64,000 nucleotides of DNA from Phycisphaerales bacterium (GCA_026647565.1 JAPKGU010000001.1:13458-77457), one strand, 5' to 3'; shown: positions 22,894 to 43,561, counted from the first letter of the stretch. Made by a program: numbers and translations. Notes: generated by a model not told the origin, from the sequence alone.

Positions 22894-22967
<74 letters not shown>

Positions 22968-22972
22968 TTGCC

Positions 22973-23007: not shown

Positions 23008-23014
23008 CAGGGAA

Positions 23015-23232: not shown

Positions 23233-23565
23233 ATGGATGCGGTTGCAACCGTGATCCGCTGGCTATCGCGCCACGCGGCGCGCGACTTTTGCATAAAGGC
23301 ATGCGGTGATGCGGCTGTGATCGTCGCGGCCATTCTCTCCGGCACGGAGCTCACCGTGATCTCAAACACCCGGCCCGAGTCCATGACGCCTGCGGAGCGC
23401 GACGCGGAAGTGGCGAGCATCTTCGCCCGCGGCCTTGCGCGGGCCATCCATGCGGAACGTTCGCGTTCCACCCGGGAGGCGAGCGACCTGGCGAAATCTG
23501 ACGCCGATCGACTTGAACTTCCGCAGCATGCGGACCTCAGTGTCTCCGCACGGCCCCGGGGTTAG
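23233..23565 (+). CDS. Hypothetical protein
   Basis: Internal ATG of the 23056 ORF with GGCGGA upstream. No domain recognised and the coding status is uncertain. Confidence 0.35.
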   Translation: MDAVATVIRWLSRHAARDFCIKACGDAAVIVAAILSGTELTVISNTRPESMTPAERDAEVASIFARGLARAIHAERSRSTREASDLAKSDADRLELPQHADLSVSARPRG

Positions 23566-23594
23566 GGCTCCGGACCATGCGAAGAGGAACCCCC

Positions 23595-24101
23595 ATGCCC
23601 GATGCGATTGAACGACAACTCGGCGAGCTTCAGCGGATGACCACCAGCGACTTGGTGGACCGCTACGAGGAACTCCACGGTCACGCCTGCCGTACGCGCC
23701 ACCGCGCCTATCTGATCCGCAAGATCGCGTGGCGCATCCAGGCCAACGCGGAGGGCGACCTGAGCGAGCGAGCCAAGCGGCGGGCGGCGGAACTCGCCGA
23801 CGACGCCGAGATCCGGACGATGGCTCCCCGCTCGTACACCTCGCCGCCGCAGCCCGGCGAGATCCGCACCTGCGTGCGGTCGCTCGACCCGCGCGACCGG
23901 CGCGATCCCCGGCTGCCGCCGCCCGGCTCCGCGATCGTCCGCCAGTACAAGGGGCGGACGATCCGGGTGATGGTGCTCGCGGACGGTGAAGGCTTCGAGT
24001 TCGACGGCGAGCGGTACGGCACGCTCTCGGTGATCGCCAAGAAGGTGACGGGCCAGCACATCAACGGGTACCGCTTCTTCGGATTGCGGGGTGGGCGATG
24101 A
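23595..24101 (+). CDS. DUF2924 family protein (recombinase-associated)
   Basis: The C-terminal GSAIVRQYKGRTIRVMVLADGEGFEFDGERYGTLSVIAKKVTGQHINGYRFFGL matches the DUF2924 pattern as remembered. AGAGGA lies 6 nt before the ATG at 23595. The stop overlaps the recombinase start (ATGA). Confidence 0.7.
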   Translation: MPDAIERQLGELQRMTTSDLVDRYEELHGHACRTRHRAYLIRKIAWRIQANAEGDLSERAKRRAAELADDAEIRTMAPRSYTSPPQPGEIRTCVRSLDPRDRRDPRLPPPGSAIVRQYKGRTIRVMVLADGEGFEFDGERYGTLSVIAKKVTGQHINGYRFFGLRGGR

Positions 24102-26550: not shown

Positions 26551-27442
26551 TCTCTTCCGGATGCTGCTCGTCGCGGCGGATATGCCGGGGTTACTCTTCG
26601 ACCACTCAGAAGTGTCGCGCTGGCCGACAGGGGCGCTCGACGACCTGCTGAGGTCACACTTGGTGCGTCCCGCTCAGACGGGGCTCACCGCGCCGTGTCC
26701 CCACTGCGACGACGGCCACGTCGAATCGGTGACGGTCGTCGCGCCGTCGGACGACACCGAGAAGCCGCGGTACTTCATCTCCTGCCCGGAGTCGCTCAAG
26801 GTCGAGGTCACCGAGGAGATGTGCCGTGGCTGGTCGGTTGACTTAGACGGCTTGGCAGTCACGCTCGCATCGGCACTCGCCGTCTCCACGCCGAAGCCGG
26901 TGGTTCCGGGGCGATTCTGGCGGCTCGGCCGGATGCAGCTGCGCGACACCACACGCGAGGTCGTTTTCGCGGCGCGACTTGCCGATGACGACGCGGAGGC
27001 GCTGATGCGGCACGTCAGCACTGGCGGACGTGCGGTGGTGTTCGTCCCGCACCGGGTGCCCGACCCGGGCCGATGGCCAGGTAGGGCACCCGCCGTGATC
27101 GCCATGCATGACGTGGCCGCGATGGCCGACGACAACATCGTGCTTGATCCGGAAGCGGTCCTTGAAGCGATCGACATCGCCGACAGGAACGCAGAATCTC
27201 GCGGAGAGATCCCCGAGGAGAAGCTGACCGCCAAGCGGATCGAGCGCGGGGTCCGCAAGGTCATCGAGAACATGGTGTCCGACGACGCACTCGTCCGGGC
27301 ATACGTGACTCACGGCTCCTATCGGAAGGCCGCTGGCCAACGTGAAGCCGTACGAGAAGAACCCCCGCAAGAACGAGGGCGCGATCGACGCGGTGGCCAA
27401 GAGCATCGCGGAGTTCGGGTTCCGCGTCCCGATCGTCGTTGA
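26537..27442 (+). CDS. Hypothetical protein with a CPHC...C cysteine cluster
   Basis: GGGAGG lies 6 nt before the ATG at 26537, with a 14-nt overlap with the upstream ORF. The last ~100 nt overlap the methyltransferase gene out of frame, so the true 3' end is uncertain. Confidence 0.5.
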   Translation: MTKADLFRMLLVAADMPGLLFDHSEVSRWPTGALDDLLRSHLVRPAQTGLTAPCPHCDDGHVESVTVVAPSDDTEKPRYFISCPESLKVEVTEEMCRGWSVDLDGLAVTLASALAVSTPKPVVPGRFWRLGRMQLRDTTREVVFAARLADDDAEALMRHVSTGGRAVVFVPHRVPDPGRWPGRAPAVIAMHDVAAMADDNIVLDPEAVLEAIDIADRNAESRGEIPEEKLTAKRIERGVRKVIENMVSDDALVRAYVTHGSYRKAAGQREAVREEPPQERGRDRRGGQEHRGVRVPRPDRR

Positions 27443-28640
27443 CAGCGAGGGCGTGGTGATCGCCGGGCACACGCGGCTCAAAGCCGCCGAGAAGCTAGGG
27501 CTCGCGGAGGTGCCCGTGCACATCGCCCGCGAGCTCACCGCCGACCAGGTGCGGGCGCTGCGGATCGCAGACAACAAGTTGCACGAATTGTCTTCGTGGG
27601 ACATGGAGCTGCTGCCGCTGGAACTGGCGGACCTGCGGTCGGTCGACTTCGATCTCGCGCTGCTGGGCTTCAGCGCCGAGGACCTCGCGGCGATCATGGC
27701 TCCCGCCGGCAACGAGGGGCTCGTCGACCCTGACGACGTGCCCGCGCCGCCCGACGCTGCGACGACGGTCCCCGGCGATATCTGGGTGCTGGGCAACCAC
27801 CGCCTGATGTGCGGCGACTCGTCCAAGCCGGAGGAGCTGGATCGACTGCTGGATGGCCAACCGATCCACCTCGTCAACACCGATCCGCCGTACAACGTGA
27901 AGGTCGAGCCGCGGAGCAACAACGCGATCGCGGCCGGGCTGTCGTCGTTCACCTCCACGCAGCGCAAGGACACGAGCGCCGGCGACCAGCAGTCGGCGGA
28001 CCTGCACCGCTACCCCGAGAAGTCCAAGCCGACGCACAAGAAGCTCCGGGCCAAGGACCGCCCCCTGGCCAACGACTTCGTGTCCGACCAGGAGTTCGAC
28101 CGCCTGCTGGCGGCGTGGTTCGGGAACATCGCCCGCGTGCTCATCCCCGGCGGCGGGTTCTACATCTGGGGCGGCTACGCGAACTGCGCCAACTACCCGC
28201 CGGTGCTCAATGCGATGGAGTTGTACTTCAGCCAGGCGGTGATCTGGATCAAGGAGCACCCGGTCCTGACGCGCAAGGACTTCATGGGCAACCACGAGTG
28301 GTGCTTCTACGGCTGGAAGGAAGGCGCGGCGCACCGCTTCTTCGGCCCCAACAACGTGCCGGACACGTGGAGCATCAAGAAGGTCAATCCGCAGAGCATG
28401 GTCCACCTGACGGAGAAGCCGGTGGAACTGGCCCGACGCGCGATCGAGTTCTCATCGCGTCCCGGAGAGAACGTGCTCGACCTCTTCGGCGGCAGCGGGA
28501 GCACGCTCATCGGCGCGGAGATGACGGGGCGGCGAGCGTACCTGATGGAACTCGACCCGCTCTACTGCGACGTCATCGTGCAGCGGTGGGAGAAGTTCAC
28601 GGGGCGGAAGGCGGAGCGGCTGAGCGCCGCGACCGTCTGA
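27342..28640 (+). CDS. ParB-like nuclease domain fused to an N4/N6 DNA methyltransferase (beta class)
   Basis: ParB-N motifs KPYEKNPRKN and VVIAGHTRLKAAEKLG. Motif IV DPPY precedes motif I LDLFGGSGSTLIGAE. GTG start. Confidence 0.85.
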   Translation: MKPYEKNPRKNEGAIDAVAKSIAEFGFRVPIVVDSEGVVIAGHTRLKAAEKLGLAEVPVHIARELTADQVRALRIADNKLHELSSWDMELLPLELADLRSVDFDLALLGFSAEDLAAIMAPAGNEGLVDPDDVPAPPDAATTVPGDIWVLGNHRLMCGDSSKPEELDRLLDGQPIHLVNTDPPYNVKVEPRSNNAIAAGLSSFTSTQRKDTSAGDQQSADLHRYPEKSKPTHKKLRAKDRPLANDFVSDQEFDRLLAAWFGNIARVLIPGGGFYIWGGYANCANYPPVLNAMELYFSQAVIWIKEHPVLTRKDFMGNHEWCFYGWKEGAAHRFFGPNNVPDTWSIKKVNPQSMVHLTEKPVELARRAIEFSSRPGENVLDLFGGSGSTLIGAEMTGRRAYLMELDPLYCDVIVQRWEKFTGRKAERLSAATV

Positions 28641-29798
28641 TCACTTCTCGTCGCCGGTCAGGATCTGGAGGTACTTGTGGTACGCGAACACCCGATCACG
28701 CTGCTTGCCGCTGACCTCGCGGAGGATGCCCGCGTCGGCGGCGATCTCGACGGCCTTCCGCGCCGTGGGCGCGGTGATCTTCAGCAGCTTCGCCACGCGT
28801 GCGGTGGTGACGACCGGGTGGTCGGGGAGCAGGTCGAGCAGTTGGAGCGCCGCCACCGTCGACCGCTTGTCGGAGGCCAGGCGGCGACGGTCCTTGCCGA
28901 GCAGTTCGAACAGCCCGCCAGCAACCTCGACCCCGTCGTCGGCCGCCTCGCGGACGCAGGACAGGAAGAACGCCGTCCACCCTTCCCAGTCGCCCTCGGT
29001 CCTGACCGCGGAGAGGCGGGCGTAGTACTCGCTCTGGTGCCGCTTGAACGCCAGGCTCAGGTACAGCAGCGGGCTGGGCATGAGCTTCCAGTGCTCCAGG
29101 AGCAGCGCGATCAGCAGGCGGCCGATGCGTCCGTTGCCGTCGAGGAAGGGGTGGATGGTCTCGAACTGCACGTGCGCGAGGCCGCACTTGATGAGGGGCG
29201 GGAGGGCATCGTCGCTGTGGATCCAGCGCTCCAGCCGCGTCATCGCCTCGGGGACGTCTTCCGCCGGGGGCGGCACGAACCTGGCGTTGCCCGGGCGTGT
29301 CCCGCCGATCCAGTTCTGTGTGCGGCGGATCTCGCCCGGAGCTTTGTCCGCGCCGCGCACGCCCTTCATGAGTCGTCTGTGGCTCTCGCAGAGAAGCCGA
29401 ACGCTGAGCGGCAACCCGCTGGGCTTGGCCAGTTCGGAGCGTGCGTACTTGATCGCCTCGACGTAGTTGCAGACCTCCTCGACATCGTGCGGCCTCTGGG
29501 CCTCCTTGGTCGCCTCGAACGTGACCACCTCGCGCAGCGTCGCCTGCGTGCCTTCGATCTGCGAGGTGATGACCGCCTCCTTGCGGACGAAGCCGTAGAG
29601 GAACCAGCCGGTGCTGGGGACCATCCGGCCCGCGACCTCCAGGCGGGCCAGGCCCGTGAGCGCGTCGGCGTGCAGCCGGTCGATGTCCCCGGCGGTCTGG
29701 AGGGCCGGGTCGGCCGGGGGCAAGGGGTGGGGAATGAACGCCCGGAAGGACTCCCCGGCGGCGGCGGATGTGCGGTAGGTGCCGGTCGTTCTGGGCAT
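28641..29798 (-). CDS. Class II Fic family protein (AMPylase-type) with Fic_N and C-terminal winged-helix domains
   Basis: Canonical HPFLDGNGRIGR active-site motif. N-terminal inhibitory motif TSQIEG ([ST]xxxE[GN]). C-terminal wHTH-like TARVAKLLKITAPTARKAV. Confidence 0.9.
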   Translation of the reverse strand: MPRTTGTYRTSAAAGESFRAFIPHPLPPADPALQTAGDIDRLHADALTGLARLEVAGRMVPSTGWFLYGFVRKEAVITSQIEGTQATLREVVTFEATKEAQRPHDVEEVCNYVEAIKYARSELAKPSGLPLSVRLLCESHRRLMKGVRGADKAPGEIRRTQNWIGGTRPGNARFVPPPAEDVPEAMTRLERWIHSDDALPPLIKCGLAHVQFETIHPFLDGNGRIGRLLIALLLEHWKLMPSPLLYLSLAFKRHQSEYYARLSAVRTEGDWEGWTAFFLSCVREAADDGVEVAGGLFELLGKDRRRLASDKRSTVAALQLLDLLPDHPVVTTARVAKLLKITAPTARKAVEIAADAGILREVSGKQRDRVFAYHKYLQILTGDEK

Positions 29799-29963: not shown

Positions 29964-30080
29964 TCAGGGCTCGTCGATCTGCGGGAGCGGGCCGTCGGTC
30001 GCTTCGTCCCATTCGAGGGCGTAGCGCTCGGCGATGTCCTCAAGGTCGTGGTCGGTCAGGTACTCGGCGGTCTTCGCCAC
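29964..30080 (-). CDS. Possible small acidic protein (38 aa from GTG; ORF open to 30182)
   Basis: AKTAEYLTDHDLEDIAERYALEWDEATDGPLPQIDEP, with a hairpin just downstream. It overlaps the 5' end of the + strand ORF 30034, so only one of the two is likely real here. Confidence 0.25.
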   Translation of the reverse strand: MAKTAEYLTDHDLEDIAERYALEWDEATDGPLPQIDEP

Positions 30081-30129
30081 CGGCTTCCAGATGATCTGGG
30101 AGGAGGCGTCGTCGTGGGTCGCCAAGCGG

Positions 30130-30714
30130 ATGCTGGAGATCCAGGGGCTGTTCGATGACGGGCTCGATGTTGAAGCCGCCAAGAAGGCGGTGGACCAGCA
30201 GCTCGAGTCCCGACTGGTCGAGCTGGAGAACGCCGCTCAGCAGTCCGTGACGGCCCGCGAGGGGCAGCGCGAACAGCAGCGCCGCGATGCGGCGGCGATG
30301 CACGAAGCGACGCTGGCCGCGATCGGCCTGGACTTCGAGAACGCGCAGGAGGCCCTGCGCAAGGATACGGAAGCGGGGCTCGCCGAGTCACAAGCGGCGC
30401 TCGACGCCGCCAAGCAGAAGCTCGCGGCCGCGATCGAGGAGGCCCGGAAGAAGCGCGAGGCCGCCGATGCCGAGAAGGGACCTGGGCGTCCCCAACGGGA
30501 CCTCCTCGCGGACTTCGAGGAGCGTCTGTCGGGCCTCGGTGCGGCCATCGGCAAGGGCATCAGTGTCACTGGGACGTTCAGCGCCGCTGCTGTCTCGGGC
30601 TTGGGCACGGGTGGCGACGCCGCCGAGCGCACCGCCAGCGCCACCGAGCAGACCGCCCGCAACACCAAGCGTCTGCTGGATGCCAGCGTCGACAACGGAC
30701 TGCGGTTTGCCTGA
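30130..30714 (+). CDS. Coiled-coil protein, possibly a truncated phage tape-measure or scaffold-like fragment
   Basis: Ala/Glu/Gln-rich coiled coil ending GTFSAAAVSGLGTGGDAAERTASATEQTARNTKRLLD. This resembles tape-measure C-terminal segments from memory only. The start is ambiguous (30034, 30091 or 30130). Confidence 0.45.
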   Translation: MLEIQGLFDDGLDVEAAKKAVDQQLESRLVELENAAQQSVTAREGQREQQRRDAAAMHEATLAAIGLDFENAQEALRKDTEAGLAESQAALDAAKQKLAAAIEEARKKREAADAEKGPGRPQRDLLADFEERLSGLGAAIGKGISVTGTFSAAAVSGLGTGGDAAERTASATEQTARNTKRLLDASVDNGLRFA

Positions 30715-30744: not shown

Positions 30745-31563
30745 GTGCCCGTCGAGGTGTTTGAGAAGTTCGAGAGCCGCCGCTCCACCAAGGCGAACCA
30801 AGCCTCGCAGTCGTCTGCGGAGCTCGGCTACATCGTGCGCGGCACCGCCGACGACCTCGCGGCCCGCACCGCAGCGCAAGCGGCCTCTCCGGCGACCTAC
30901 GACACGCTCCCGCGCCAGACCATCCAGATCGAGCCCATCGGACCGCAGCTGTGGGACGTCACCGTCCGCTACAGTCAGAACGCCTCCACCGGCACGAGCA
31001 CCCCGAGCGAGTCCTCGTTCACGTTCGAGACCGGCGGCGGGACGCAGCACATCACCCAGAGCCTGCAGACCGTGCAGCGCCGGCCCGCACCAGGCACCAC
31101 CGCGCCCGACTTCGGCGGCGCGATCGGCGTCACCTCCGACGGCGTCGAGGGCGTCGACATCACCGTCCCGGTCTACCAGTTCTCCGAGACGCACTACTTC
31201 ACGGACGCGCAGGTCACCGCCTCGTACAAGGGCGCGATCTTCTCCTGCACGGGCAAGACCAACGCCGGCTCGTTCCGCGGGTTCGCGGCTGGCGAGGTGC
31301 TGTTTCTCGGTGCGACAGGCTCCAAACGCGGCGACGGCCCGGATGACGACTGGGAGATCACGTTTCGGTTCGCGGCGAGCCCAAACCAGACCAACCTGAC
31401 CGTCGGTCCCGTCACCGGGATCAACAAGAAGGGGTGGGAGTACCTGTGGGTCCGCTACGCCGACGCCGAGGACTCGGGGTCTGGCGCGATCATCAAGAAA
31501 CCCATCGCCGCGTACGTCGAGCGCGTGTACGACCAGGCCAACTTCGGAGCACTCGGAATCTAA
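30745..31563 (+). CDS. Hypothetical protein, phage-structural-looking (beta-rich, no repeats)
   Basis: GTG with AAGGAG 10 nt upstream and strong third-position GC. No family recognised. Confidence 0.55.
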   Translation: MPVEVFEKFESRRSTKANQASQSSAELGYIVRGTADDLAARTAAQAASPATYDTLPRQTIQIEPIGPQLWDVTVRYSQNASTGTSTPSESSFTFETGGGTQHITQSLQTVQRRPAPGTTAPDFGGAIGVTSDGVEGVDITVPVYQFSETHYFTDAQVTASYKGAIFSCTGKTNAGSFRGFAAGEVLFLGATGSKRGDGPDDDWEITFRFAASPNQTNLTVGPVTGINKKGWEYLWVRYADAEDSGSGAIIKKPIAAYVERVYDQANFGALGI

Positions 31564-31566
31564 AGC

Positions 31567-32607
31567 ATGTCGGACGACCTCCACAAAGTTCGCTCCGGCC
31601 AGCCGCTCCGCATCCCCGCGGGCGCGTATAACGCGTTCGTCGATGCGGCGGTCGATCTGCGCACGCGACAGGGGCGGGGCCAAGCCGTCGCCGGTCCTCT
31701 CGTCGAATCCGCGCAGCGTGGCATCGGCGTGGTGCTGGTCCGCAACGACTCGGACGAACTGATCGAGCCGCACCACGCGCTGGCGATCACCGGTGTGCTG
31801 GTCGAGCCCGGTGAGGACGACCAGGAGCGGACCTTCCACAGTCGCACGCCCCTGACGGGCGACATGGCGAACGAGGAGTCCGACACGCTCGCCCTCGCGG
31901 TGGCGCTCCAGCCCATCAAACCCAATGCCCTCGGCCCCTGCGTGCTCACCGGCGTGACGACCGCCCGGGTCTACATCACCAACGAGACCGACACCACCTG
32001 CGAGCTCGCGGCAGACGAGACGGTCCTGGCGAGCACGCCCATGGGCGGCATCCCGATCCTGTGGAAGGAGGTTGGCACCGGCGAGAAGTGGGCGGTGATC
32101 GAGCTCGGCCGCCCCTCGCCCGGACGCATCACCGCGATCCTGGGCGCGGCCCAGCCGATCCCCACCGAGCGCAACCGCTGGCGCTACCCGTGGGTCGAGG
32201 CCCAGATCGACGGCAACCCCGGCAGCCCGGACTATCTGCGGTACGTGCCGGTCGAGAACGGCCTGACCTCGCAGGCCCCCAGCGGCGGCGAGGACCCCAC
32301 GCGCCTGGCGATCAACCGCTTCGAGGCGCACCACATGGACGACTCCGAGCCCGGCTCCGGGTTCGGTGGCCTGCTCGGGCTGGGCCCGGTGTGCGAGCTC
32401 CCGGGCGTGCTGCCCAAGTGCCCGCCCGCGCGGTCGCTCAAGCCCAAGCTCGTGCCGATCCCCGAGGGCGTGTGCGTGCAGATGACCTGTGAGCGCAACA
32501 GCCGGGGCAAGCCCGTGTGGGTCTTCGAGGCCATGAGCCTCATCGAGATCGCCGACCCCGCCGACGAGGACCGCAAGTTCAACCTCTACATCGGAGGTGC
32601 CGAATGA
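31567..32607 (+). CDS. Hypothetical protein, phage-structural-looking
   Basis: ATG 3 nt after the upstream stop. Its stop overlaps the next start (ATGA). No family recognised. Confidence 0.55.
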   Translation: MSDDLHKVRSGQPLRIPAGAYNAFVDAAVDLRTRQGRGQAVAGPLVESAQRGIGVVLVRNDSDELIEPHHALAITGVLVEPGEDDQERTFHSRTPLTGDMANEESDTLALAVALQPIKPNALGPCVLTGVTTARVYITNETDTTCELAADETVLASTPMGGIPILWKEVGTGEKWAVIELGRPSPGRITAILGAAQPIPTERNRWRYPWVEAQIDGNPGSPDYLRYVPVENGLTSQAPSGGEDPTRLAINRFEAHHMDDSEPGSGFGGLLGLGPVCELPGVLPKCPPARSLKPKLVPIPEGVCVQMTCERNSRGKPVWVFEAMSLIEIADPADEDRKFNLYIGGAE

Positions 32608-33194
32608 CAACCACTCCGACCACCCCAACGCCGCTGGAGGCCAAGCGTGCCAAAGAACGGGCCAAGTACCTCGCGCTGGCCAGCAAGCCCGGCTCGACCT
32701 ACGGGTCGACCAACCACGGCCGGGCGGCGATCCCGCTCATCCAGGAGAGCAAGCCGAGGTTCGTGGTGGACTTCGGTTGCGGCCGCAACGACCTTGTGCG
32801 CGAGTTGCGGCGTCTTGGCATCGACGGGCTGGGCGTCGACTTTGCCTTCCCCGAAGCGGACCTCGTGCGCCCCATGCACGCGACCGCCCTGCAGGCGGGC
32901 ATCGCCGATGTGGTGACGAGCTTCGACGCCCTCGAGCACCTCCTGCCCGAGGACGTGGATCTCACGCTCGCGGAGATGCGCCGCGTCGCGGTGCCGCGTG
33001 GGCGGTTCATCTTCTCGATCTGCACGCGGCCGAGCACGACCACCGTCGCCGGCGAGGGTCTGCACCCGACGGTGCGTCCGCTGGACTGGTGGCTGGAGCG
33101 CATCGCCCGCGTCGGCGTCGCTGGCAGGCCCCAGGCGGGGTCCCGCTACATCGTCGGGCGGTTCAAGAGTGATGGGGGGTGCTGCGGTGCGTGA
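32604..33194 (+). CDS. Class I SAM-dependent methyltransferase
   Basis: Motif I VVDFGCGRN, post-I LGVDF and motif II/III region VVTSFDALEHL. GGAGG precedes the ATG. Confidence 0.75.
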   Translation: MTTTPTTPTPLEAKRAKERAKYLALASKPGSTYGSTNHGRAAIPLIQESKPRFVVDFGCGRNDLVRELRRLGIDGLGVDFAFPEADLVRPMHATALQAGIADVVTSFDALEHLLPEDVDLTLAEMRRVAVPRGRFIFSICTRPSTTTVAGEGLHPTVRPLDWWLERIARVGVAGRPQAGSRYIVGRFKSDGGCCGA

Positions 33195-34101
33195 GAACCA
33201 GTCCGACATCGCGGCGCTGCAGGCCGGGCTCAAGGCGCGTAAGCCCGCCCGTGATGGCCTGCGCCTCTACACCGCTCCGCCGACGTTCGAGTCGGTGTCG
33301 CTGAGCGGGTTCTACCGAGGCCGGTCCGCGTTCCTGATGCTCTCCGGGCCCTCCCTCAAGCAGATCGACCTGTCGCTGCTGGACGCCCGCGGCATCGTCA
33401 CGATGGCCGTCAACAACGCCTGGTCCGTGCGGCGTCCGACGCTCTGGACCTGCGTGGACGACCCCGGCCGCTTCATCGATGTGGGCTGGAAGGACCCGGG
33501 CATCCTGAAGTTCGTGCCGACCTGCATGTGGGACAAGCGGCTGAAGGTGATGAACCCCGACGGCACGCTCCGCAACAGCGCCTTCAAGGTCCACCAGATG
33601 CCCGGCGTGCTGTTCTTCCGACGCAGCGATCACTTCGACCACGTGCGATTCCTCACCGGGGACACGATCTCATGGGGCAACGACGCGAAGAACCCCGACT
33701 CGCTGGGCATCACCGGCAAGCGCTCGGTCATGCTCGTCGCCCTGCGCCTGCTCCACTACCTCGGCTTCTCGACGGTGTACCTGCTCGGCTGCGACTTCAA
33801 GATGGACGCGGAGCGCAAATACGCCTTCGACGAGCACCGAGCGCAGAACGCGATCCGGCACAACAACGTGCTGTATGACTCGCTGTCGAAGAGATTCGAG
33901 GCCCTCAAGCCGCACTTCGAGAAGCACCGATTCCGCGTCGTCAACTGCTCGCCCGGAAGCGCCCTGGAGGTCTTCGAGAAGATGGCCTTTGAGGACGCGG
34001 TGACGGCAGCCGCTTCCGAGTGCGGCAAGCCCATCCGCACCGACGGGTGGTACGAGCCCAATCCCAAGGCGAGCGCCCCGCAACAGGAGGCCGCACGATG
34101 A
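33172..34101 (+). CDS. MptE/DUF115 (Maf-like) putative glycosyltransferase
   Basis: FLMLSGPSLKQIDLSLL...VTMAVNNAW and YLLGCDFKMD resemble the GPSL/N.../G-D motifs of DUF115 motility-accessory-factor-type proteins (motif-level only). Start at 33172 or GTG 33187. Confidence 0.5.
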   Translation: MGGAAVRENQSDIAALQAGLKARKPARDGLRLYTAPPTFESVSLSGFYRGRSAFLMLSGPSLKQIDLSLLDARGIVTMAVNNAWSVRRPTLWTCVDDPGRFIDVGWKDPGILKFVPTCMWDKRLKVMNPDGTLRNSAFKVHQMPGVLFFRRSDHFDHVRFLTGDTISWGNDAKNPDSLGITGKRSVMLVALRLLHYLGFSTVYLLGCDFKMDAERKYAFDEHRAQNAIRHNNVLYDSLSKRFEALKPHFEKHRFRVVNCSPGSALEVFEKMAFEDAVTAAASECGKPIRTDGWYEPNPKASAPQQEAAR

Positions 34102-35606
34102 GCGACGGCCCCACTCGGTACTACCTCTACATCCCCGTCTGGGCGACGGGGCGTGCTCCGCAAGGCGGCGGGTCGAGCAACTACTCGACGCCGTCGGGCT
34201 CGACGCCCGAGAGCACGTACTCGACGCCGACCAGCACGCCGAGCATGCCGCCGAGCTACTCGACGACCGGCGACGTGATCTACACGACCGGGCCGGGCGG
34301 CACGCCCACGCTCACGTTCTACACCACCGGCGCGTTCACGAGCAACACGCCGGGGACGACGCACACGCCGTCGAGCAGCGGGGCGATGTCATCCAGCGGG
34401 ATGACCACCGACTCGTCGCAGACGCCGACGAGTTCGCAGACCCCGTCGAGCACGGGCTCATCGGGCATGAGCAGTTCCGGCGGCGGGAGTTCTTCGGGTG
34501 CATCGAGCGGTATGTCGTCGGGCGCGAGTTCGGGGGCATCGTCGGGCATGTCCACTGGTGGCAGTTCCGGTATGTCCTCGGGCATGTCGTCTGGCGGGTC
34601 GTCCGGTGGTTCATCGGGAGGCGGGTCGTCGGGTGGCGGTGGATCGAGTGGCGGCGGCAGCGGCCCCGGTGGGTCGGGTCCAGGCGGGTCCGGGCCTGGC
34701 GGCTCGGGGCCGGGTGGTTCTGGCCCGGGCGGCAGTGGTCCCGGTGGCTCCGGCCCCGGTTCCAACTGCGTGCTCGCGGGCACGCCCGTGGTGCTGGCGG
34801 ACGGCTCGACCAAGCCGGTCGAGGCGCTCCAGCCGGGCGATCGTGTCGCGGCGCTCGACGTGGCGGGCCTGGACCGCGACGTGCCGTGGCGAGCCCAGTA
34901 CCAGTGGCTCCGTCCCTGGGCCGAAGCGGCGCTCACGCCCGTCACCGGCACCGTCGGCAGCGTGAAACTCGGCACGCACGAGGGCTTCATCACCATCAAC
35001 GGACGCCTGCGCCTCACGCCCGAGCACCCGGTGCTGCTCAAACGCAACGATGAGATCGGCTTCGCGTCGGCGGAGTTCGTGCAGGTCGGCGATGCGCTCG
35101 TGCGCCAGGACCTAAGCGAGGAACTCGTCGAGTCAGTTGATCGGTCGGGCGAGCGCGTGACGACAGTGGCCGTGCATGTGCCCGGACTCAACGTGTTCCT
35201 GGTGGGCGGCGTTGGGGGGGTGTGGATTCACAACGACATGCCCGCCACGCAGCAGAGCGGCTCGGGCTCGTCGTCGGGTTCAGGGTCGAGTTCTGGATCT
35301 GGGTCCGGCTCCTCGAGCGGGAGCGGCTCCGGCAGCGGCAAGTCCAGCGGCTCGTCCATGTCGAGCTCGGGGTCCAGTTCCGGGTCGAGTTCCGGCAGTT
35401 CGTCGGGCTCATCGAGCGGGAGTGACAGCGGCTCCGGCCCGCCCGGCTCCGGATCGGGCTCCGGCAGCGCCCAGCAGTCAGTGGCGCTGGGCGAAGGCGC
35501 ATCGTCCTTCATCGAGGGTGGCATGGAGGGTGTGCCTCCGGCGAAGTGGCAGCAGAGCGGCGTAGCAAGTCTCAGCAGCGGCATCGAAGAGGAGGCAAAG
35601 GCGTGA
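34098..35606 (+). CDS. Ser/Thr/Pro- and Ser/Gly-rich protein with an internal Hint (bacterial intein-like) domain
   Basis: ATGA overlap with the upstream gene. The Hint N-terminus CVLAGTPVVLADGSTKPVEALQPGDRV starts at Cys codon 34767. Block B is TPEH. The C-terminus is VGGVWIHN (Asn codon 35232-35234) followed by Asp. The flanks are almost pure S/G/T/P. Confidence 0.8.
   Translation: MSDGPTRYYLYIPVWATGRAPQGGGSSNYSTPSGSTPESTYSTPTSTPSMPPSYSTTGDVIYTTGPGGTPTLTFYTTGAFTSNTPGTTHTPSSSGAMSSSGMTTDSSQTPTSSQTPSSTGSSGMSSSGGGSSSGASSGMSSGASSGASSGMSTGGSSGMSSGMSSGGSSGGSSGGGSSGGGGSSGGGSGPGGSGPGGSGPGGSGPGGSGPGGSGPGGSGPGSNCVLAGTPVVLADGSTKPVEALQPGDRVAALDVAGLDRDVPWRAQYQWLRPWAEAALTPVTGTVGSVKLGTHEGFITINGRLRLTPEHPVLLKRNDEIGFASAEFVQVGDALVRQDLSEELVESVDRSGERVTTVAVHVPGLNVFLVGGVGGVWIHNDMPATQQSGSGSSSGSGSSSGSGSGSSSGSGSGSGKSSGSSMSSSGSSSGSSSGSSSGSSSGSDSGSGPPGSGSGSGSAQQSVALGEGASSFIEGGMEGVPPAKWQQSGVASLSSGIEEEAKA
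34653..34757 (+). repeat. Seven tandem 15-nt units encoding (GGSGP)x7 immediately upstream of the Hint domain
   Basis: Codon by codon, every unit encodes GGSGP, but the units differ at synonymous positions (e.g. ggc ggc agc ggc ccc / ggt ggg tcg ggt cca / ggc ggg tcc ggg cct). Confidence 0.85.
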
Positions 35607-36226
35607 TTCCGAAGGTCATCTACACGGCGGACCTCAGCGGGACTCCCGACAAGCAGCGGCTCACGGCCTGGCGGCACGCGTGGCAAACCATGCATCCCGA
35701 GTGGGACGTGGTGACGCTCACGCTGGACACCAAGCCGCCGATCATGAACTACGACCAGTGGCAGCAGACCTTCGGGCTCAGCGAGCCCGCAGCCTCGGCG
35801 GCACGGCTGAACCTGCTTCGCTACGAGGTGCTGGCCCGCGAGGGCGGAGTGTTTGTCGATCCCGATCGCCTGCCGCTGCGACCGCTCGATGAGCTCGTCA
35901 CTGGCGTCGGTGCCTTCTGCTCCACGATCGCCAGCCACGGCGCGAGCCGCCCGCACATGCTCTCGCCATCGGTGCTCGGCGCGACGCGGAACCATCCGAT
36001 GCTCTGGCACGCCATCCGCGACCTGCCGCACTCGGTGCTGGTCTATCGCGGCGTGTGGGACCAGAGCGGGCCGGGGTTCCTCACCCGCGTCGTCCGCGAC
36101 CACGGACACTTCCGCGACGTGGTGCCGTTTCACTGGGCGCTCTTCGAACAGACCGAGGACGCCGCGAAGGCCCACGGCGGGGCATTCGCATTCGTGCAGC
36201 CCAAGCCCGCGGAGGTGGTGGCGTGA
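35603..36226 (+). CDS. Glycosyltransferase with DXD motif (GT32 / Gly_transf_sug-like)
   Basis: IPKVIYT N-terminus, LLRYEVLAREGGVFVDPD (DXD region). GTGA overlap with the upstream gene. Confidence 0.65.
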   Translation: MIPKVIYTADLSGTPDKQRLTAWRHAWQTMHPEWDVVTLTLDTKPPIMNYDQWQQTFGLSEPAASAARLNLLRYEVLAREGGVFVDPDRLPLRPLDELVTGVGAFCSTIASHGASRPHMLSPSVLGATRNHPMLWHAIRDLPHSVLVYRGVWDQSGPGFLTRVVRDHGHFRDVVPFHWALFEQTEDAAKAHGGAFAFVQPKPAEVVA

Positions 36227-36228
36227 GC

Positions 36229-36906
36229 ATGGCCGCACGCACCACCTCGATCCCGCGTGTCCTGCACCAGATCTGGCTGGGCAAGGGCGAGATGCCCCTC
36301 AATCAGCGGCGCTGGCGGCGGCGCTTCGCCGAGATGAACCCGCACTGGGAGATGCGGCTGTGGACGGACGACAACCTGCCGCCGATCCTGAACCGCAACG
36401 CCTGGGACGCGTGCGGCAACGTCGGCGGGACGCCCGGCTGCGTGATGCGGTCGGATATCCTGCGGCTTGAGATCCTGGCCCGGTTCGGAGGGGTCTATCT
36501 CGACACCGACGTGAAGCCCGTGCGGCCGCTGGACGAGATGTGCCCGCCCGAGGTGGTCGCGTGGGCGGCGTGCGAGCAACTCGACATCGTCACCAATGCC
36601 GCGATGGGCTTCCCGCCAAACCACCCGGCGATGTGGCACGTGGTGGCGATGATTGAAGAGTCATTCTTCGAGCGCCGGTACGTCGGTGATCAGGCGGGGC
36701 CAGGACTGATCGCCCGGGTCGTGACGCAGTACGACGACGTGGCACTCTACCCGCCGGCGTACTTCCACCCGACGGTTAGGGAGTCGAAGTCAAACCCGGA
36801 CGCGCCCGTGTTCTTGAAGGCGGCACATCTCTTCGCGGGGACGTGGGTGGAAGAGAACCGGCAACGCTACTCAAGAATGTGGCACGCGAACGAATCACCT
36901 CGCTGA
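36229..36906 (+). CDS. Glycosyltransferase with DXD motif (GT32 / Gly_transf_sug-like), paralogue of the preceding gene
   Basis: [11 protein letters not shown] and [21 protein letters not shown]. The start (GTG 36223 or ATG 36229) overlaps or abuts the upstream stop. The 3' end overlaps the copA 3' end by 12 nt. Confidence 0.7.
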
Positions 36907-39423: not shown

Positions 39424-39876
39424 TCAGCGTGCAATCCTTCCGACCAGTTCGATCAGTTCTTCGATCATCGCGTCCTGCTGCTGTTTGTCACCGTGCATCG
39501 CGCGGCTCGCGCAATGCCCGAGGTGGTTCCGCAGCAGGTTCTTCGCCACGGCTCGCAGGGACTCCTGCACCGCCGCGCACTGCTGGATGATGTCGGCGCA
39601 GTAGCGGTCCTCCTGGATCATCGCGGCGATGCCGCGGACTTGGCCCTCAATGCGTTTGAGGTGCTTGAGGTTGGCGGCCTTAAGCCCAGAGTCGACACCC
39701 GCGGCGTGGGCTCCGGGGCCTACGCCTTCATGTGCGCCTGCCCTTGCGCTTGTCGCCGCGCAGCCGCAGCACGCCGACGGCGTGGCCAGCGCGTCCGAAG
39801 CGGTGGAAGTGCCGTGGCCGCTGAGTGACGGACTGAGAGTCTCGATGCGTGGTTCGTTGTTCTTGCGGTTCTTCAT
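39424..39876 (-). CDS. csoR: CsoR/RcnR family metal-sensing repressor with ~60-aa N-terminal extension
   Basis: LKRIEGQVRGIAAMIQEDRYCADIIQQCAAVQESL...HLGHC matches the CsoR (DUF156) pattern. GAAGGA precedes the ATG at 39876. Confidence 0.8.
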   Translation of the reverse strand: MKNRKNNEPRIETLSPSLSGHGTSTASDALATPSACCGCAATSARAGAHEGVGPGAHAAGVDSGLKAANLKHLKRIEGQVRGIAAMIQEDRYCADIIQQCAAVQESLRAVAKNLLRNHLGHCASRAMHGDKQQQDAMIEELIELVGRIAR

Positions 39877-39881
39877 GGCTG

Positions 39882-41519
39882 ATGTTCCTTCGGACGAACT
39901 CCTGCGAAAGCGTCGGCGAAACCCCGGACGGCAGCGTCCAGTGCGTCCTCGACGGCGACCTCTACAACCGCGCGGACGTCCGCAAATTCGTCACCTCCCG
40001 CACCCGCGACCTCCGCACCGACTCCAACGCCGAACTCATCGCCCACCTCTGGCAGGCCAAGGGACGCGACATGCTCATGTCCCTCCGCGGCGGCTACGCC
40101 CTCGCCATCCTCGACCGCGCCAACAGCACCCTCTTCGTCGCCCGCGACGCCCTCGGCCACCGCCCCCTGTTCGTCTACGAGGGACACGAGGGCTGGGCGG
40201 TCGGCTCCGACCTGCGCGCCGTCCTCGCCTGGCCCGCCACCCGCCCCGCTCTCGAAACCCGCGCCCTCGACCACTTCCTCGCCTACCACATCCCCCCCCA
40301 GCCCCTCACGCTCTTCCGGAACGTCCGGAAAATCCTCCCGGCCGGCTGGCTGGAAATCCGGAACGGCCGCGTCGAGGAAGGCCGGTACTGGGAACCGACC
40401 TACTACGACCCCGCCGGTCAGAATCCCGACGAGGTCGCCCAGCACGCGTTCAGCTACCTGTTCGAAAGCGTCAAGGCCCACACGCGCGACCTGGACCGAC
40501 CGACCGTCTGCCTCGAGGGCGACCCGTACAGCGCCGTCCTCGCCGGGCTCGCGTCGCTGGCGAAGCGCGGGCGATTCACGACGTTTTCGCTCAAACACGC
40601 CTGGATCCCCGCCGAAACCCGGAGCGGAACCGCCGCTGCGGTGGCGCGGTTCGGATGCCCGCACCACGAGGAGGAGGTTGCGGGGTCCATCGCCGAGCTG
40701 CTCGACGCCATCGCGGACGTGAACATCGAGGGGCTCCCGATCTCCCGGATGGCGCAGGCGATGCTGTTCGCGGGAAGCGCTTCGGCGTCCTCGCCGGGGG
40801 TGCTGACGGCCGCGGGCGGAGAGCTCTACTGGCTGGCGGGGCGCCGGCCGGTGCCGCCGCCGCTCTCCACGCTCGGCGCCTGGCGGCAGGTGAAGGAGTC
40901 GGGCGGGTCTTCGGCCGGGCTTTCCGTCGCGCTGCGGGCGGAATTCGAGGCGCGGATGACGGTGCCGACGGCGGAGCGTGCGTCGCTCGCGGGGCGCCCC
41001 GGGATCCCGGCGCTCGACGCGGTGACGGAGGTGATGAAGCACGCGGCAACGCCGGGAGAGGCGTCGGCGGCGGCCTATGTGGACGCCGCGTGCTTCCTCC
41101 CCGACCTCTTCATCAGCCCGATCCAGGCCGCCTGTCGCGCCCGTGGATTCCCGGCCCGTTCGCCGCTGGCGGATCCGAGCGCGGTCCAGCTGCTGGTCCC
41201 GGTGGTGCACTCGCTCGCCGGGCAGAATCCCCTGCAGGGGCTCCGCCGGGTCTTCGAGTCGCTCGTCCCGGAAGACGCGTTCTGGAATGCGCGCTGGTCG
41301 CGCCCGGAGGACTGGGAGACCGCGACCTGGCGCGAGCTCGGCGAGCGCGCCTGCGACTCGCTCACCGAGCGGCGCTCCCTCGAGCGCGGCCTCTTCGAAG
41401 GCTCGCACGTCCGCCGGCTGGTCGAGGACCAGCGCGCCGGCCGGGAGCGCAACGAGCGCAAGCTGCTGCTGCTGTTCGCCCTTGAACTCTGGATGCGGAG
41501 CGGCATCGACCCCCGCTGA
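39882..41519 (+). CDS. Asparagine synthase-like protein lacking the N-terminal Cys nucleophile and with a degenerate PP-loop (possible pseudoenzyme or truncated gene)
   Basis: Aligns with the intact AsnB at 46862 from ...TPDGSVQCVLDGDLYN onward. The MCG N-terminus is absent. SGGIDS is replaced by EGDPYS (TVCLEGDPYSAVLAGLAS versus VGCYLSGGIDSTIVSGLAS). Confidence 0.6.
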   Translation: MFLRTNSCESVGETPDGSVQCVLDGDLYNRADVRKFVTSRTRDLRTDSNAELIAHLWQAKGRDMLMSLRGGYALAILDRANSTLFVARDALGHRPLFVYEGHEGWAVGSDLRAVLAWPATRPALETRALDHFLAYHIPPQPLTLFRNVRKILPAGWLEIRNGRVEEGRYWEPTYYDPAGQNPDEVAQHAFSYLFESVKAHTRDLDRPTVCLEGDPYSAVLAGLASLAKRGRFTTFSLKHAWIPAETRSGTAAAVARFGCPHHEEEVAGSIAELLDAIADVNIEGLPISRMAQAMLFAGSASASSPGVLTAAGGELYWLAGRRPVPPPLSTLGAWRQVKESGGSSAGLSVALRAEFEARMTVPTAERASLAGRPGIPALDAVTEVMKHAATPGEASAAAYVDAACFLPDLFISPIQAACRARGFPARSPLADPSAVQLLVPVVHSLAGQNPLQGLRRVFESLVPEDAFWNARWSRPEDWETATWRELGERACDSLTERRSLERGLFEGSHVRRLVEDQRAGRERNERKLLLLFALELWMRSGIDPR

Positions 41520-41544
41520 GCCCATTTTCTGTGGAGACACCCTG

Positions 41545-42717
41545 GTGAAAGTTCCCCTGCTCGACCTTGTCGGCCAGTACAAGTCCATCCAGAGCGAGAT
41601 TCAGGCGGCGATCGCGCCGGTCATGGAATCGCAGATGCTGATTCTCGGCGCGACCGTCGAGAAGTTCGAGGCGGCGATGGCCGAGCTGACGGGGGTGAAG
41701 CACTCGATCGCGATGTCGAGCGGCTCGGACGCGATCCTGATCGCGGCGATGGGGCTCGGGCTCGGGCGCGAGGATGACGTGATCGTGCCGAGTTTCACGT
41801 TTTTCGCGACGGCCGGGTGCATCGCGCGGCTGGGGATCCGGCCGGTCTTCGCGGACATCGACCCGAAGACTTACTGTCTCTCGCCGGACGCGGTGACGGC
41901 GCTGATCGCCAGGGACTACGTGGTGAAAAAGGACGGCGCGCCGCCCGTGAACAGGAAGACCGGGAGGGCGCTCCGGGGAATCATGCCGGTCCACCTCTAC
42001 GGGCAGTGCGCCGACATGGACGCGTTCCTGAAGATCGGGGAGATCTACGGAATCCCGATCATCGAGGACGCCGCGCAGGCGATCGACGCCCACTACCAGG
42101 GGCGCCCCGCCGGGTCGATGGGGACCATCAGCTGCTTCTCGTTCTACCCGACCAAGAACCTCGGCGCGTTCGGGGACGCCGGACATGTCGTCACCCCCGA
42201 TCCGAAACTCGGGGACCTGATCCGCAAACTCCGCGTCCACGGCGGCCACCAGCGCTACTACCACGACATCGTCGGGATCAACGGGCGGATGGACGCGATC
42301 CAGGCCGCCGTCCTCTCCGTCAAGATCCGGCACCTGAAGGGCTGGATCCGCGCCCGGCAGGAACGCGCCGCACGGTACGCCGCGCTCTTCGCGAAACACG
42401 GGCTGACCGGCACCGTCACCCTCCCGTTCACCGCGCCGGACCGCGATCACACCTGGCACCAGTACGTCATCCGCGCCCCGCGCCGCGATGCCCTCCGCGA
42501 CCACCTCAAGGCCGCGGAGGTCGGCAGCGAGGTCTACTACCCGCTCCCCCTCCACATGCAGTCCTGCTTCGCCGATCTCGGCTGCCGCGAGGGCGACCTC
42601 CCCGAATCGGAGAAGGCCGCGAAGGAGGTGCTGGCCCTTCCCATCTACCCCGAACTCTCCGAGGAACAGCAGGGCTGGGTCGTCGCGAAGATCGCGGAGT
42701 TCTACGGGAAACGGTAA
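41545..42717 (+). CDS. DegT/DnrJ/EryC1/StrS family sugar aminotransferase
   Basis: VPLLDLVGQYKSI, VIVPSFTFFATA and SFYPTKNLGAFGDAG (PLP-lysine context). GTG at 41545 with GGAG 8 nt upstream. Confidence 0.85.
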   Translation: MKVPLLDLVGQYKSIQSEIQAAIAPVMESQMLILGATVEKFEAAMAELTGVKHSIAMSSGSDAILIAAMGLGLGREDDVIVPSFTFFATAGCIARLGIRPVFADIDPKTYCLSPDAVTALIARDYVVKKDGAPPVNRKTGRALRGIMPVHLYGQCADMDAFLKIGEIYGIPIIEDAAQAIDAHYQGRPAGSMGTISCFSFYPTKNLGAFGDAGHVVTPDPKLGDLIRKLRVHGGHQRYYHDIVGINGRMDAIQAAVLSVKIRHLKGWIRARQERAARYAALFAKHGLTGTVTLPFTAPDRDHTWHQYVIRAPRRDALRDHLKAAEVGSEVYYPLPLHMQSCFADLGCREGDLPESEKAAKEVLALPIYPELSEEQQGWVVAKIAEFYGKR

Positions 42718-42779
42718 GCGGGGAATGCCGGCCCGCTCCGGCGCGTTCTCAGTCCACATGCCATCACAAGGGGAGACTC

Positions 42780-43025
42780 ATGCCTGAACCGAAGATCGCC
42801 GCACGTTCGCCGTACAAGTCCGAGCTCGCCGCCGGGACCTACGCCTGGTGTTCCTGCGGGCACTCGGCGAAACAGCCGTTCTGCGACGGCTCCCACAAGG
42901 GGACCGGATTTTCCCCGAAGATGTTCGAGATGAAGGAAAAGGCCTTCGTCGCGCTCTGCATGTGCAAGCACTCCGCGAACGGCGAACGGTGCGACGGCTC
43001 GCACAAGTCGCTCCCGCCGGCCTGA
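42780..43025 (+). CDS. CDGSH iron-sulfur domain protein (two CDGSH motifs)
   Basis: CSCGHSAKQPFCDGSHK and CMCKHSANGERCDGSHK. AAGGGGAG precedes the ATG. Confidence 0.8.
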   Translation: MPEPKIAARSPYKSELAAGTYAWCSCGHSAKQPFCDGSHKGTGFSPKMFEMKEKAFVALCMCKHSANGERCDGSHKSLPPA

Positions 43026-43104
43026 TCGCGCCGCCCGCCGCTCCTTAGTTCTGGACCGGCGGGCGCCGGGCGCGAGAATGGACCTTTCCCCACGGAGGCC
43101 GGAT

Positions 43105-43470
43105 ATGCCTGCGCCCGTCTGCCACGTCGAGATCCCGGTCAGGAACATGGCCCGCGCGAAGAAGTTCTACCGCGCACTGTTCGGCTGGGCGTTCAAGCAG
43201 TTCTCGCCGCGGTACGTGATGTTCGACACGGGGGTGCGGCCTGGCGGGGCGCTGGTGAAGATCGACGGCCCGATCGGCGGGGACCACGCGACGGTCTATC
43301 TCCGCGTGGACTCGATCGGCGAGACGCTGCGCGCGGCGAAGGCGTTCGGCGTCGACGTGCCGACGAAGAAGTCCGAAATCGGCGGCGAGGGCGCGTTCAT
43401 CGCGCACCTCCGCGACACCGAGGGGAACAAGATCGGGCTGTTCGAAGAGGTCACGGCGGAGCTGGCCTGA
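43105..43470 (+). CDS. VOC (glyoxalase/bleomycin-resistance) family protein
   Basis: HVEIPVRNMARAKKFYRALFGW and AHLRDTEGNKIGLFE. GGAGG lies 5 nt before the ATG. Confidence 0.7.
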   Translation: MPAPVCHVEIPVRNMARAKKFYRALFGWAFKQFSPRYVMFDTGVRPGGALVKIDGPIGGDHATVYLRVDSIGETLRAAKAFGVDVPTKKSEIGGEGAFIAHLRDTEGNKIGLFEEVTAELA

Positions 43471-43561
43471 GCCGCGTTCCGCCCATGGGGCCGGCGGGGG
43501 GCGCGCGGACGCCGAGAAGCGTTGACGGGGAGGGTCCGCGCCCGGAAGGTAGGGCGCACCC

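Follow-up and report, generated by a model that had tools for sequence, protein, structure and literature searches.

We analysed a 64,000-nucleotide (nt) stretch of DNA from a Phycisphaerales bacterium (GCA_026647565.1 JAPKGU010000001.1:13458-77457), hereafter called the window, and report on a gene of its plus strand (34098-35606) which encodes a serine-, threonine- and glycine-rich protein of 502 amino acids (aa). According to its structural model, the domain embedded in this protein is a Hint module of the bacterial-intein-like (BIL) kind and, as judged from the sequences of its relatives, this module is under purifying selection with its catalytic set intact. We consider it rather probable that the product is a phage protein, encoded at the usual tail-fibre gene position, and that its Hint excises itself by way of a thioester and of asparagine cyclisation. 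The gene and the parts of its product are the following, with the basis of each assignment in brackets:

34098-35606, plus strand: Hint gene, S/T/G-rich 502-aa protein with an embedded Hint (open reading frame (ORF) listing, translation)
34098-34148, plus strand: conserved N-terminal motif MSDGPTRYYLYIPVWAT, residues 1-17 (family pattern match)
34098-34766, plus strand: N-extein, 223 aa, S/G/T/P-rich, without Lys, last residue Asn223 at position -1 (translation, family comparison)
34661-34760, plus strand: GSGPG peptide repeat, about 7 copies, directly before the Hint (imperfect 15-bp DNA repeats)
34767-35234, plus strand: mini-Hint (BIL-like), 156 aa, with Cys224, Thr307-Pro-Glu-His310 and His378-Asn379 (AlphaFold2 model and Foldseek, invariant columns)
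35235-35237, plus strand: Asp380, the +1 residue (translation, family alignment)
35337-35360, plus strand: Lys motif GKSSGSSM in the C-extein, with the Lys415 codon at 35340-35342 (family motif K[STH]SGSS[MFS])
35466-35603, plus strand: C-terminal tail SAQQSVALGEGASSFIEGGMEGVPPAKWQQ...EEEAKA (common to Hint-less alleles)

A Hint module between two low-complexity tracts

The plus-strand reading frame is open from 34020 to 35606, and the ATG at 34098 is its likely start. An AGGAGG lies 7 nt 5' of this ATG, which overlaps the stop codon of the upstream gene as ATGA. An exact look-up of the 502-aa protein returned no record. The initial annotation of this DNA had described a Hint module set between two S/G/T/P tracts, and the translation bears this out. 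In residues 1-223, Ser accounts for 29%, Gly for 28%, Thr for 13% and Pro for 10%; the Hint (residues 224-379, from the Cys224 codon at 34767 to the Asn379 codon at 35232-35234) is a compositionally normal block, and the 123 aa that follow Asn379 divide into SG repeats (about 77 aa) and a tail of 46 aa. All the motifs previously singled out could be read: the N-side junction SN/CVLAGTPVVLADG (the slash marks the scissile bond) with its Cys1, block B TPEH at residues 307-310, the domain end VWIHN and an Asp at +1, that is, an intact catalytic set followed by a residue which is not a nucleophile. By eye, the N-terminus MSDGPTRYYLYIPVWATGRAPQGG contains no n- or h-region resembling those of a signal peptide, as had been stated before. 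Within the N-extein, the block TTGDVIYTTGPGGTPTLTFYTTGAFTSN is kept across clades. The DNA that encodes the GSGPG repeat has a period of 15 and 6.7 copies (Tandem Repeats Finder); since its 15-bp units match at only 70%, the peptide repeat has been kept while the DNA repeat has degenerated. Tract lengths nevertheless differ among close relatives.

A sequence search of PDB with the Hint gave only matches with E about 0.7-1.8, and in NCBIfam nothing but the intein portion of a single model was matched, weakly. Apart from weak Hint or intein matches, PHROGs, Pfam and NCBIfam offered no family to which the full-length protein could be assigned, and Pfam detected no other domain in the S/G/T flanking tracts, where ubiquitin-like domains were not present. 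For some members of the family, precomputed Pfam matches to Intein_splicing, PT-HINT or Hint_2 (PF14890, PF07591, PF13403) exist. An AlphaFold2 model of the Hint was built on 11 family sequences (pLDDT 71, pTM 0.68), a structure prediction which the initial annotation had suggested, and compared with PDB using Foldseek. This comparison led to 36 matches at E<=1e-3, all of them BIL domains, inteins or Hedgehog proteins; the Hint domain is therefore real. The best match was the BIL domain of C. thermocellum (2lwy, E 3e-8, TM-score 0.81 on the target), followed by the BIL2 entries of Tetrahymena BUBL (6tmm, 6y75) and then by mini-inteins and Hedgehog. By its motifs, a His-Asn end and no nucleophile in the C-flank, the module fits the definition of an A-type BIL domain (PMC7765530, PMC7664689); it is not a canonical class 1 intein, because the +1 residue is Asp380.

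Conservation of the catalytic residues and of the flanks

More than 200 relatives were found, nearly all in metagenome-assembled genomes of Phycisphaerae/Planctomycetota and in viral contigs. ORFs were re-read in 229 loci, which gave 104 unique full-length proteins; 98 unique Hint domains were taken from loci, and the junctions were compared in a wider set of 201 unique sequences. One locus (L003, JGI Ga0558119_03096) was not used as evidence on account of its frameshifts; this 67-kb contig carries many of them through the whole block, likely as assembly or sequencing errors, and its calls of the family gene are fragments. Gene callers usually miss the low-complexity N part, either by placing the start inside the Hint or by calling a spurious Pro-rich ORF on the opposite strand, and as a consequence most database entries of the family are N-terminally truncated. 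Such spurious ORFs were seen at L001:9415-9975(-), at L002:9409-9726(-) and in the window at 34319-35191(-).

The N-terminal pattern [MV]S(D/E)xPxRY[YF]LYIPVWA was present in every one of the 104 unique full-length members, including those devoid of Hint. The S/T/G tract varies in length, which places Cys1 at residue 177-259 in full-length members. The 98 unique Hint domains diverge to 50% identity, yet 39 columns are invariant, among them Cys1, Thr84, His87, His155 and Asn156, and the median dN/dS (ratio of nonsynonymous to synonymous substitution rates) of the Hint is 0.25-0.36. The flanking residues are fixed as well: position -1 is always Asn (98/98 unique proteins), and the junction reads HN/D in 196 of the 201 unique sequences, the exceptions being single ones (A, Q, Y, T and HD/N). 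The +1 residue is Thr in P0250, Tyr in P0104 and Asn in P0249, while the Hint of P0245 ends in HT, not HN. The cassette made of the S-rich tract, the Hint, the Asp and the K motif was also observed behind unrelated N-terminal regions (P0244, P0245, P0247, P0249), which in P0245 is a NADAR domain. Several single Phycisphaeraceae genomes contain 4-5 copies of the gene (CP054186.1, loci L038/L056/L073/L074; JAHBXF010000002.1, loci L041/L088/L092/L100; BQMO01 loci), as would be expected if each of them had several related prophages or remnants of prophages. The family is also present in a Tepidisphaera chromosome derived from a metagenome (CP051526).

Alleles without the Hint

Five unique alleles from five metagenomes (L152-154, L159 and L160; 319-331 aa) have no Hint. 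They keep the N-terminal motif, the block TTGDVI[YF]TTGP..TPTLT.YTT.AFTS and the GSGPG repeat, which there directly precedes the S/G tract whereas it abuts the Hint in the window protein, and they share with the Hint-bearing proteins the C-terminal tail SVA[IL]G..FIEGG[MV]EGVPPA.WQ. Because the same N- and C-terminal modules are kept, the Hint is an optional insertion. The -1 Asn, the +1 Asp and the K motif were seen in Hint-bearing proteins only; these alleles have none of the three. The Hint-less alleles lie within the same eight-gene block, at 65-75% identity, and are in part closer to the window: a neighbouring gene of 346 aa is at 74% to the window in Hint-less loci versus 49% in the Hint-bearing clade of locus L001. 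The Hint has therefore been gained or lost within the family. Assembly collapse was considered as a source of these alleles and rejected, as they come from five metagenomes and two diverged subclades and have an extra unique segment.

A conserved lysine downstream of the Hint

No Lys occurs in the N-extein of any of the 98 Hint-bearing unique full-length proteins. In the same proteins, the first Lys of the C-extein is found at +34 to +58, inside GK[STH]SGSS[MFS], and in 45 of them it is the only Lys of the C-extein. The motif K[STH]SGSS[MFS] is present in 193/201 sequences, with near-variants in most of the others.

A phmmer scan of 1.84 billion representatives recovered 479 relatives at E<=1e-3. 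Lysines were counted where the domain was complete and the C-extein 1-25 aa long (n=51; P0279-P0387, also L229:2960-4941 and L230:3032-4462). Exactly one Lys was found in the C-extein of 49 of these 51 short-tail Hints and two Lys in none, while any Lys would be expected in 11-31 of the 51 and none of 200,000 simulations reached 49. The linkers between tandem Hints read K, KG, KAG or KGA. Phage NCTB encodes in addition a stand-alone Hint-like protein of 153 aa which ends in HN/KVD. A by-product of Shine-Dalgarno sites was tried as the origin of the Lys rule. It fails in Phage NCTB and in Afa-NA1, where the ribosome-binding site of the following gene is not formed by the Lys codons, and is inapplicable to the internal K motif and to tandem Hints; it may still hold for some other short-tail proteins.

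Several of the related Hints are on proteins of the tail-fibre type. Among the matches are 'tail proteins' with collagen repeats from Phage NCTB, Alcaligenes phage Afa-NA1 and Salmonella phage Sen-NF; those of NCTB (L229, LT598654.1) and Afa-NA1 (L230, PV550095.1) end in a Hint without +1 nucleophile and adjoin tail-fibre genes; further 'intein domain' genes are found near them. In one representative the Hint is combined with a Gp38-adhesin-like region, in another with a NADAR domain. When the Hint model was compared with the viral BFVD collection using Foldseek, 47 matches were obtained at E<=1e-3 and all the named ones were Hint-bearing viral proteins. The best are apparently the NCTB proteins, as deduced from matching lengths, followed by uncultured Caudovirales proteins named 'Hint domain' or FN3; both groups outrank the inteins of terminases and polymerases. 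Searches of the literature turned up no study of these proteins, nor any of Hints carried by phage tail-fibre or low-complexity proteins.

Proposed mechanism

In the reaction suggested by the conserved residues, Cys224 would attack the Asn223-Cys224 bond with the aid of Thr307 and His310, an N-to-S acyl shift giving a thioester, and Asn379 would cyclise with the aid of His378, so that the Asn379-Asp380 bond breaks. With an Asp at +1, there can be no transesterification to the C-extein and the thioester would have to be resolved otherwise, by water or by an amine. Water would leave two free fragments and a free Hint, which is quite conceivable. The epsilon-amine of Lys415 would give a branched, re-joined protein, a tenable outcome too, and the alpha-amine of Asp380 a linear re-joined one, which seems improbable. 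We infer each of these chemical steps, and likewise glycosylation and presence in the virion. The conserved Lys of the C-extein and the one-Lys rule of related Hints point to re-attachment by an amine, and the Hint-less alleles, in which both halves are held in one chain, make re-joining, along with the Lys pattern, a serious option.

The same reasoning may tentatively be extended to the wider, uncharacterised Hint lineage, several members of which are at the ends of phage proteins of the tail-fibre type. In these proteins, as in the window protein, the single Lys of the C-extein would resolve the Cys1 thioester and Asn cyclisation would then free the Hint, the N-chain being joined by an isopeptide to the C-terminal peptide. 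Isopeptide formation with Lys has been reported for the BIL2 domain of Tetrahymena (PMC8616854). Such Lys-directed splicing, if true, would be a bacterial and phage counterpart of the Tetrahymena BUBL reaction, with no need of a +1 Cys, Ser or Thr.

The gene closes a phage late operon

The family is found in siphophage-like prophages of Phycisphaerae. Where these are complete, the genes follow each other as capsid, cement, head-tail joining, major tail, tape measure, a 272-aa protein, a protein of about 345 aa, a methyltransferase dependent on S-adenosylmethionine (SAM), a sialyltransferase-like protein of about 300 aa and the Hint gene, which closes the late operon and is often followed by two DXD glycosyltransferases. 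The Hint gene had been regarded as an unusual cargo, an opinion which no longer holds, since it is a conserved late-operon gene of the whole phage family. The idea of a secreted hypervariable protein has to be abandoned too, since the protein has no visible signal peptide and is encoded in a phage structural operon. The corresponding genes of the window are:

30034-30714, plus strand: truncated tape measure C-terminus (homology to the L001 666-aa protein)
30745-31563, plus strand: 272-aa gene (synteny)
31567-32607, plus strand: 346-aa gene (synteny)
32604-33194, plus strand: SAM-dependent methyltransferase (Pfam Methyltransf_23, Methyltransf_11; PHROG methyltransferase)
33172-34101, plus strand: sialyltransferase-like (CST/MptE-like) protein, 309 aa (PHROG 4603)
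35603-36226, plus strand: DXD glycosyltransferase a (Pfam Gly_transf_sug, 25.4 bits for a cut-off of 23)
36229-36906, plus strand: DXD glycosyltransferase b, last gene of the island (Gly_transf_sug 38.1 bits, TcdA_TcdB 31.8 bits)

The 666-aa homologue in L001 matches the tape measure model TIGR01760 with 29.5 bits for a cut-off of 28.8. The 226-aa, 272-aa and 346-aa proteins had no family in PHROGs, Pfam or NCBIfam, and a PDB sequence search with the last two gave nothing. The methyltransferase, whose gene overlaps the 346-aa gene as ATGA, is syntenic in all loci examined. The sialyltransferase-like gene lies directly upstream of the Hint gene in the loci examined in detail. Its 309-aa product matched PHROG 4603 'alpha-2,3-sialyltransferase' (E 1.5e-11) and, below threshold, the Pfam families CST-I (E 0.004) and MptE-like (E 0.007); by sequence its best PDB match had E 0.33, and with its AlphaFold2 model (pLDDT 86.7) the top five Foldseek matches in PDB were all Cst-II. 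The GTG start of glycosyltransferase a overlaps the TGA stop of the Hint gene as GTGA, and an AGGAGG preceding it is contained in the EEEAKA codons (window 35585-35606). Judging from this operon context, the disordered S/T/G/P-rich extein is probably O-glycosylated by the products of the neighbouring sialyltransferase-like, DXD-glycosyltransferase and methyltransferase genes. The term 'mucin-like' used in the initial annotation thus receives contextual support, because methyltransferase and sialyltransferase-like genes precede the Hint gene in the family.

In the window, the operon is part of an island extending from a tRNA-Met (22893-22968) to 36906, flanked on one side by planctomycete PSCyt/PSD1/DUF1501 genes and on the other by a convergent host Cu-ATPase gene. 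The earlier description of a recombinase-borne, phage-like island was accurate, as a serine recombinase gene and phage tail-module genes are both present. Its left part contains:

22893-25549, plus strand: left end of the island, with the tRNA-Met, a 169-aa ORF, a DUF2924 gene and a large serine recombinase gene at 24098-25549 (ARAGORN; Pfam Resolvase, Recombinase, Zn_ribbon_recom, DUF2924)
27342-28640: ParB-DNA methyltransferase gene
28641-29798, minus strand: Fic gene

Phage homology begins abruptly at 30072, and the tape measure keeps only residues 442-665 of its L001 homologue. Since only the last third of this gene remains, the window copy of the Hint gene belongs to a decayed prophage. 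Locus L040 has an intact tape measure gene beside a homologous Cu-ATPase gene, and in L038 the gene is truncated at a different point. None of the genomes compared was identical to the window, the best match being 92-94%. The prophage end abuts a BREX-like cluster in L002 and an SNF2/AIPR/methylase cluster in L001. Downstream of the island, a host cluster at 39849-44701 with asparagine-synthase-like, DegT/DnrJ aminotransferase and GT4 glycosyltransferase genes may be a sugar-modification locus.

Alternative explanations

The initial annotation expected, as one of two outcomes, two separate low-complexity polypeptides. Such pure autoproteolysis, in which both junctions are hydrolysed and chains of 223 and 123 aa act separately, or in which the C part is a disposable assembly aid comparable to the self-cleaving S74 chaperone domains of tail fibres, is an option that we take seriously without expecting it to prevail. 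BIL domains that lack a +1 nucleophile mostly cleave, and their products are mainly cleaved ones (PMC7664689, PMC7765530), in agreement with the initial annotation; tail-fibre proteins of low complexity commonly end in a domain that cleaves itself (PMC7824862), and in many relatives the C-extein is only 1-16 aa long, so that joining would seem pointless there. However, hydrolysis leaves unexplained the exactly-one-Lys rule, the K motif with the Lys-free N-extein and the near-invariant +1 Asp, and in the Hint-less alleles a single chain, whose end modules are the same, contains both halves. Cleavage itself has BIL precedent; in view of these one-chain alleles two polypeptides are not the sole conceivable outcome and maybe not the best one. 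A further alternative is a linear splicing without nucleophile, in which the alpha-amine of Asp380 attacks the thioester to give a 346-aa chain with the junction ...GSN-DMPAT..., the Hint being an intein-like passenger. The product would be equivalent to the Hint-less alleles, presence and absence are polymorphic at one site, and the catalytic residues are conserved, as they should be if proteins that do not splice are detrimental. For the best structural match, the BIL domain of C. thermocellum, ligation in the absence of nucleophilic side chains has been reported (Aranko 2013, cited in PMC7664689). We nevertheless regard this as improbable: a review states that A-type BIL domains cleave and do not ligate their flanks (PMC7765530), the domain contains no homing endonuclease, the insertion is in a floppy linker and not at a conserved site, and the -1 Asn, +1 Asp and K motif accompany the Hint, unlike the host-derived flanks of inteins.

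The thioester might instead be passed to another molecule in a Hedgehog-like manner, for example to a virion amine, a glycan or a lipid, with the result that the N-chain is stapled to the tail, the capsid or the host envelope. Attachment to another molecule had been the second outcome considered in the initial annotation, Hint domains are established agents of this type of transfer (PMC7765530), conjugation of the N-extein to further proteins has been reported for BIL2 (PMC8616854), and the gene is in the tail-fibre position of the operon. Yet the protein has no region that would recruit an acceptor, such as a sterol-recognition region, a pure N-side transfer has no need of the terminal Asn and of the C-extein motif, both of which are conserved, and the Hint-less alleles would have no attachment at all, which makes transfer a rather unlikely outcome. 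That the Hint is inert and acts as a folded spacer, or that the gene is a relic decaying in a dead prophage, appears very unlikely. The prophage of the window is indeed truncated, with residues 1-441 of the tape measure lost and head genes absent, and its Pfam scores are sub-threshold, but the catalytic residues are invariant in 98 unique domains with a dN/dS well below 1, the ORF is intact with a good Shine-Dalgarno site, and the same gene is intact in full prophages and in viral contigs.

Several points weigh against our preferred reading, the excision of the Hint from a phage protein through a thioester and Asn cyclisation. Its chemistry, cleavage and ligation alike, is a prediction. The Pfam Hint profiles named in the initial annotation do match the window protein, but all below threshold (Hint_2 19.7 bits for a cut-off of 28.4, Hint 16.7 for 29.7, PT-HINT 16.7 for 27.7), and a further weak match was to Vint. 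The AlphaFold2 model is only moderate at pLDDT 71, its last strand and the junctions being of low confidence, and the block F Asp typical of inteins is apparently missing, as judged by eye. About 35 residues of floppy linker separate Lys415 from the junction, a less favourable arrangement than in the short-tail relatives, whose Lys is at +1 to +9. Among the neighbours, the 272-aa and 346-aa proteins have no recognisable family, and the fold match of the 309-aa protein to Cst-II is weak (TM-score 0.39-0.47 with E 3e-3, and 0.35-0.47 over the top five); glycosylation and a location in the virion are predictions. Finally, the window gene lies in a decayed prophage and may not be expressed.

Significance

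We know of few studied phages of Planctomycetota. If the Hint is active, the family would provide a case of protein autoprocessing in a phage structural-module protein of this phylum. It also offers natural controls, the Hint-less alleles, and the fixed -1 Asn and +1 Asp together with the Lys motif make the fate of the thioester testable. Should the Lys prove to be the acceptor, the module would be a compact, ATP-free maker of site-specific isopeptides, of interest to protein engineers, and this would explain why exactly one Lys is kept behind related Hints, several of which are on phage fibre-type proteins. Finally, sialyltransferase-like, DXD glycosyltransferase and methyltransferase genes next to the Hint gene hint at a glycoprotein fibre made by the phage, which would bear on the encounter between phage and host.

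Comparison with known systems

The closest relatives by motif are the A-type BIL domains (Amitai 2003; Dassa 2004; 2lwy), which like the window Hint are mini-Hints with an N-terminal Cys, a TxxH and a His-Asn end, have no Cys, Ser or Thr at +1 and lie in a length-variable region of a non-housekeeping protein. In contrast to them, the window Hint is encoded in a phage late operon and not in a secreted or toxin protein, with no visible signal peptide; the flanks of its family are fixed (-1 Asn, +1 Asp) instead of diverse, and the family has a downstream Lys motif and Hint-less alleles. A-type BIL domains are located in hypervariable regions of non-conserved bacterial proteins; the window protein varies in tract length within its family, but is conserved within a phage family and gives no sign of secretion. 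As proxies for the A-type sequence blocks, the sub-threshold PT-HINT match and the structural match to 2lwy come nearest. BIL2 of Tetrahymena thermophila BUBL1 (6tmm, 6y75) is the second-best structural match, and its chemistry, based on the epsilon-amine of a Lys, is by analogy the one that the window Lys suggests. The flanks of the window Hint are disordered S/G tracts and not ubiquitin-like domains, however, the identity is about 14%, and a dependence on zinc is reported for BIL2; the isopeptide of the window protein is a prediction. Class 1 mini-inteins (DnaB, RecA, gp41-1) have in common with the window Hint the fold, Cys1, TxxH, His-Asn, a size of about 150 aa and alleles with and without the element, but differ by the +1 Asp of the window protein, its low-complexity linker site and flank residues that belong to the element and not to the host.

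Among phage proteins, the Hint-ended tail proteins of NCTB (SBV38305), Afa-NA1 (XUE01657) and Salmonella phage Sen-NF, annotated in GenBank and uncharacterised, resemble the window protein by a low-complexity, fibre-like N part, a Hint and a Lys in the C-extein. Their Hint is C-terminal with a tail of 7-12 aa, whereas that of the window protein is internal with a C-extein of 123 aa, and the identity is 28-30%. Peptidase S74 chaperone domains, which cleave themselves and are carried by low-complexity phage fibres (PMC7824862), would be functional analogues if the outcome here is cleavage. Their fold and chemistry are unrelated, with a Ser-Lys dyad in place of a Cys thioester and Asn cyclisation, and the window protein is not a member of that group. 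The presence of a Ser/Thr-rich tract beside dedicated glycosyltransferases is a feature that the window locus shares with serine-rich repeat glycoproteins and with the O-glycosylation clusters of phage virions. Unlike serine-rich repeat glycoproteins, the window protein is devoid of signal peptide, accessory Sec system and cell-wall anchor, and its glycosylation is only predicted. The locus resembles the virion glycosylation of mycobacteriophages.

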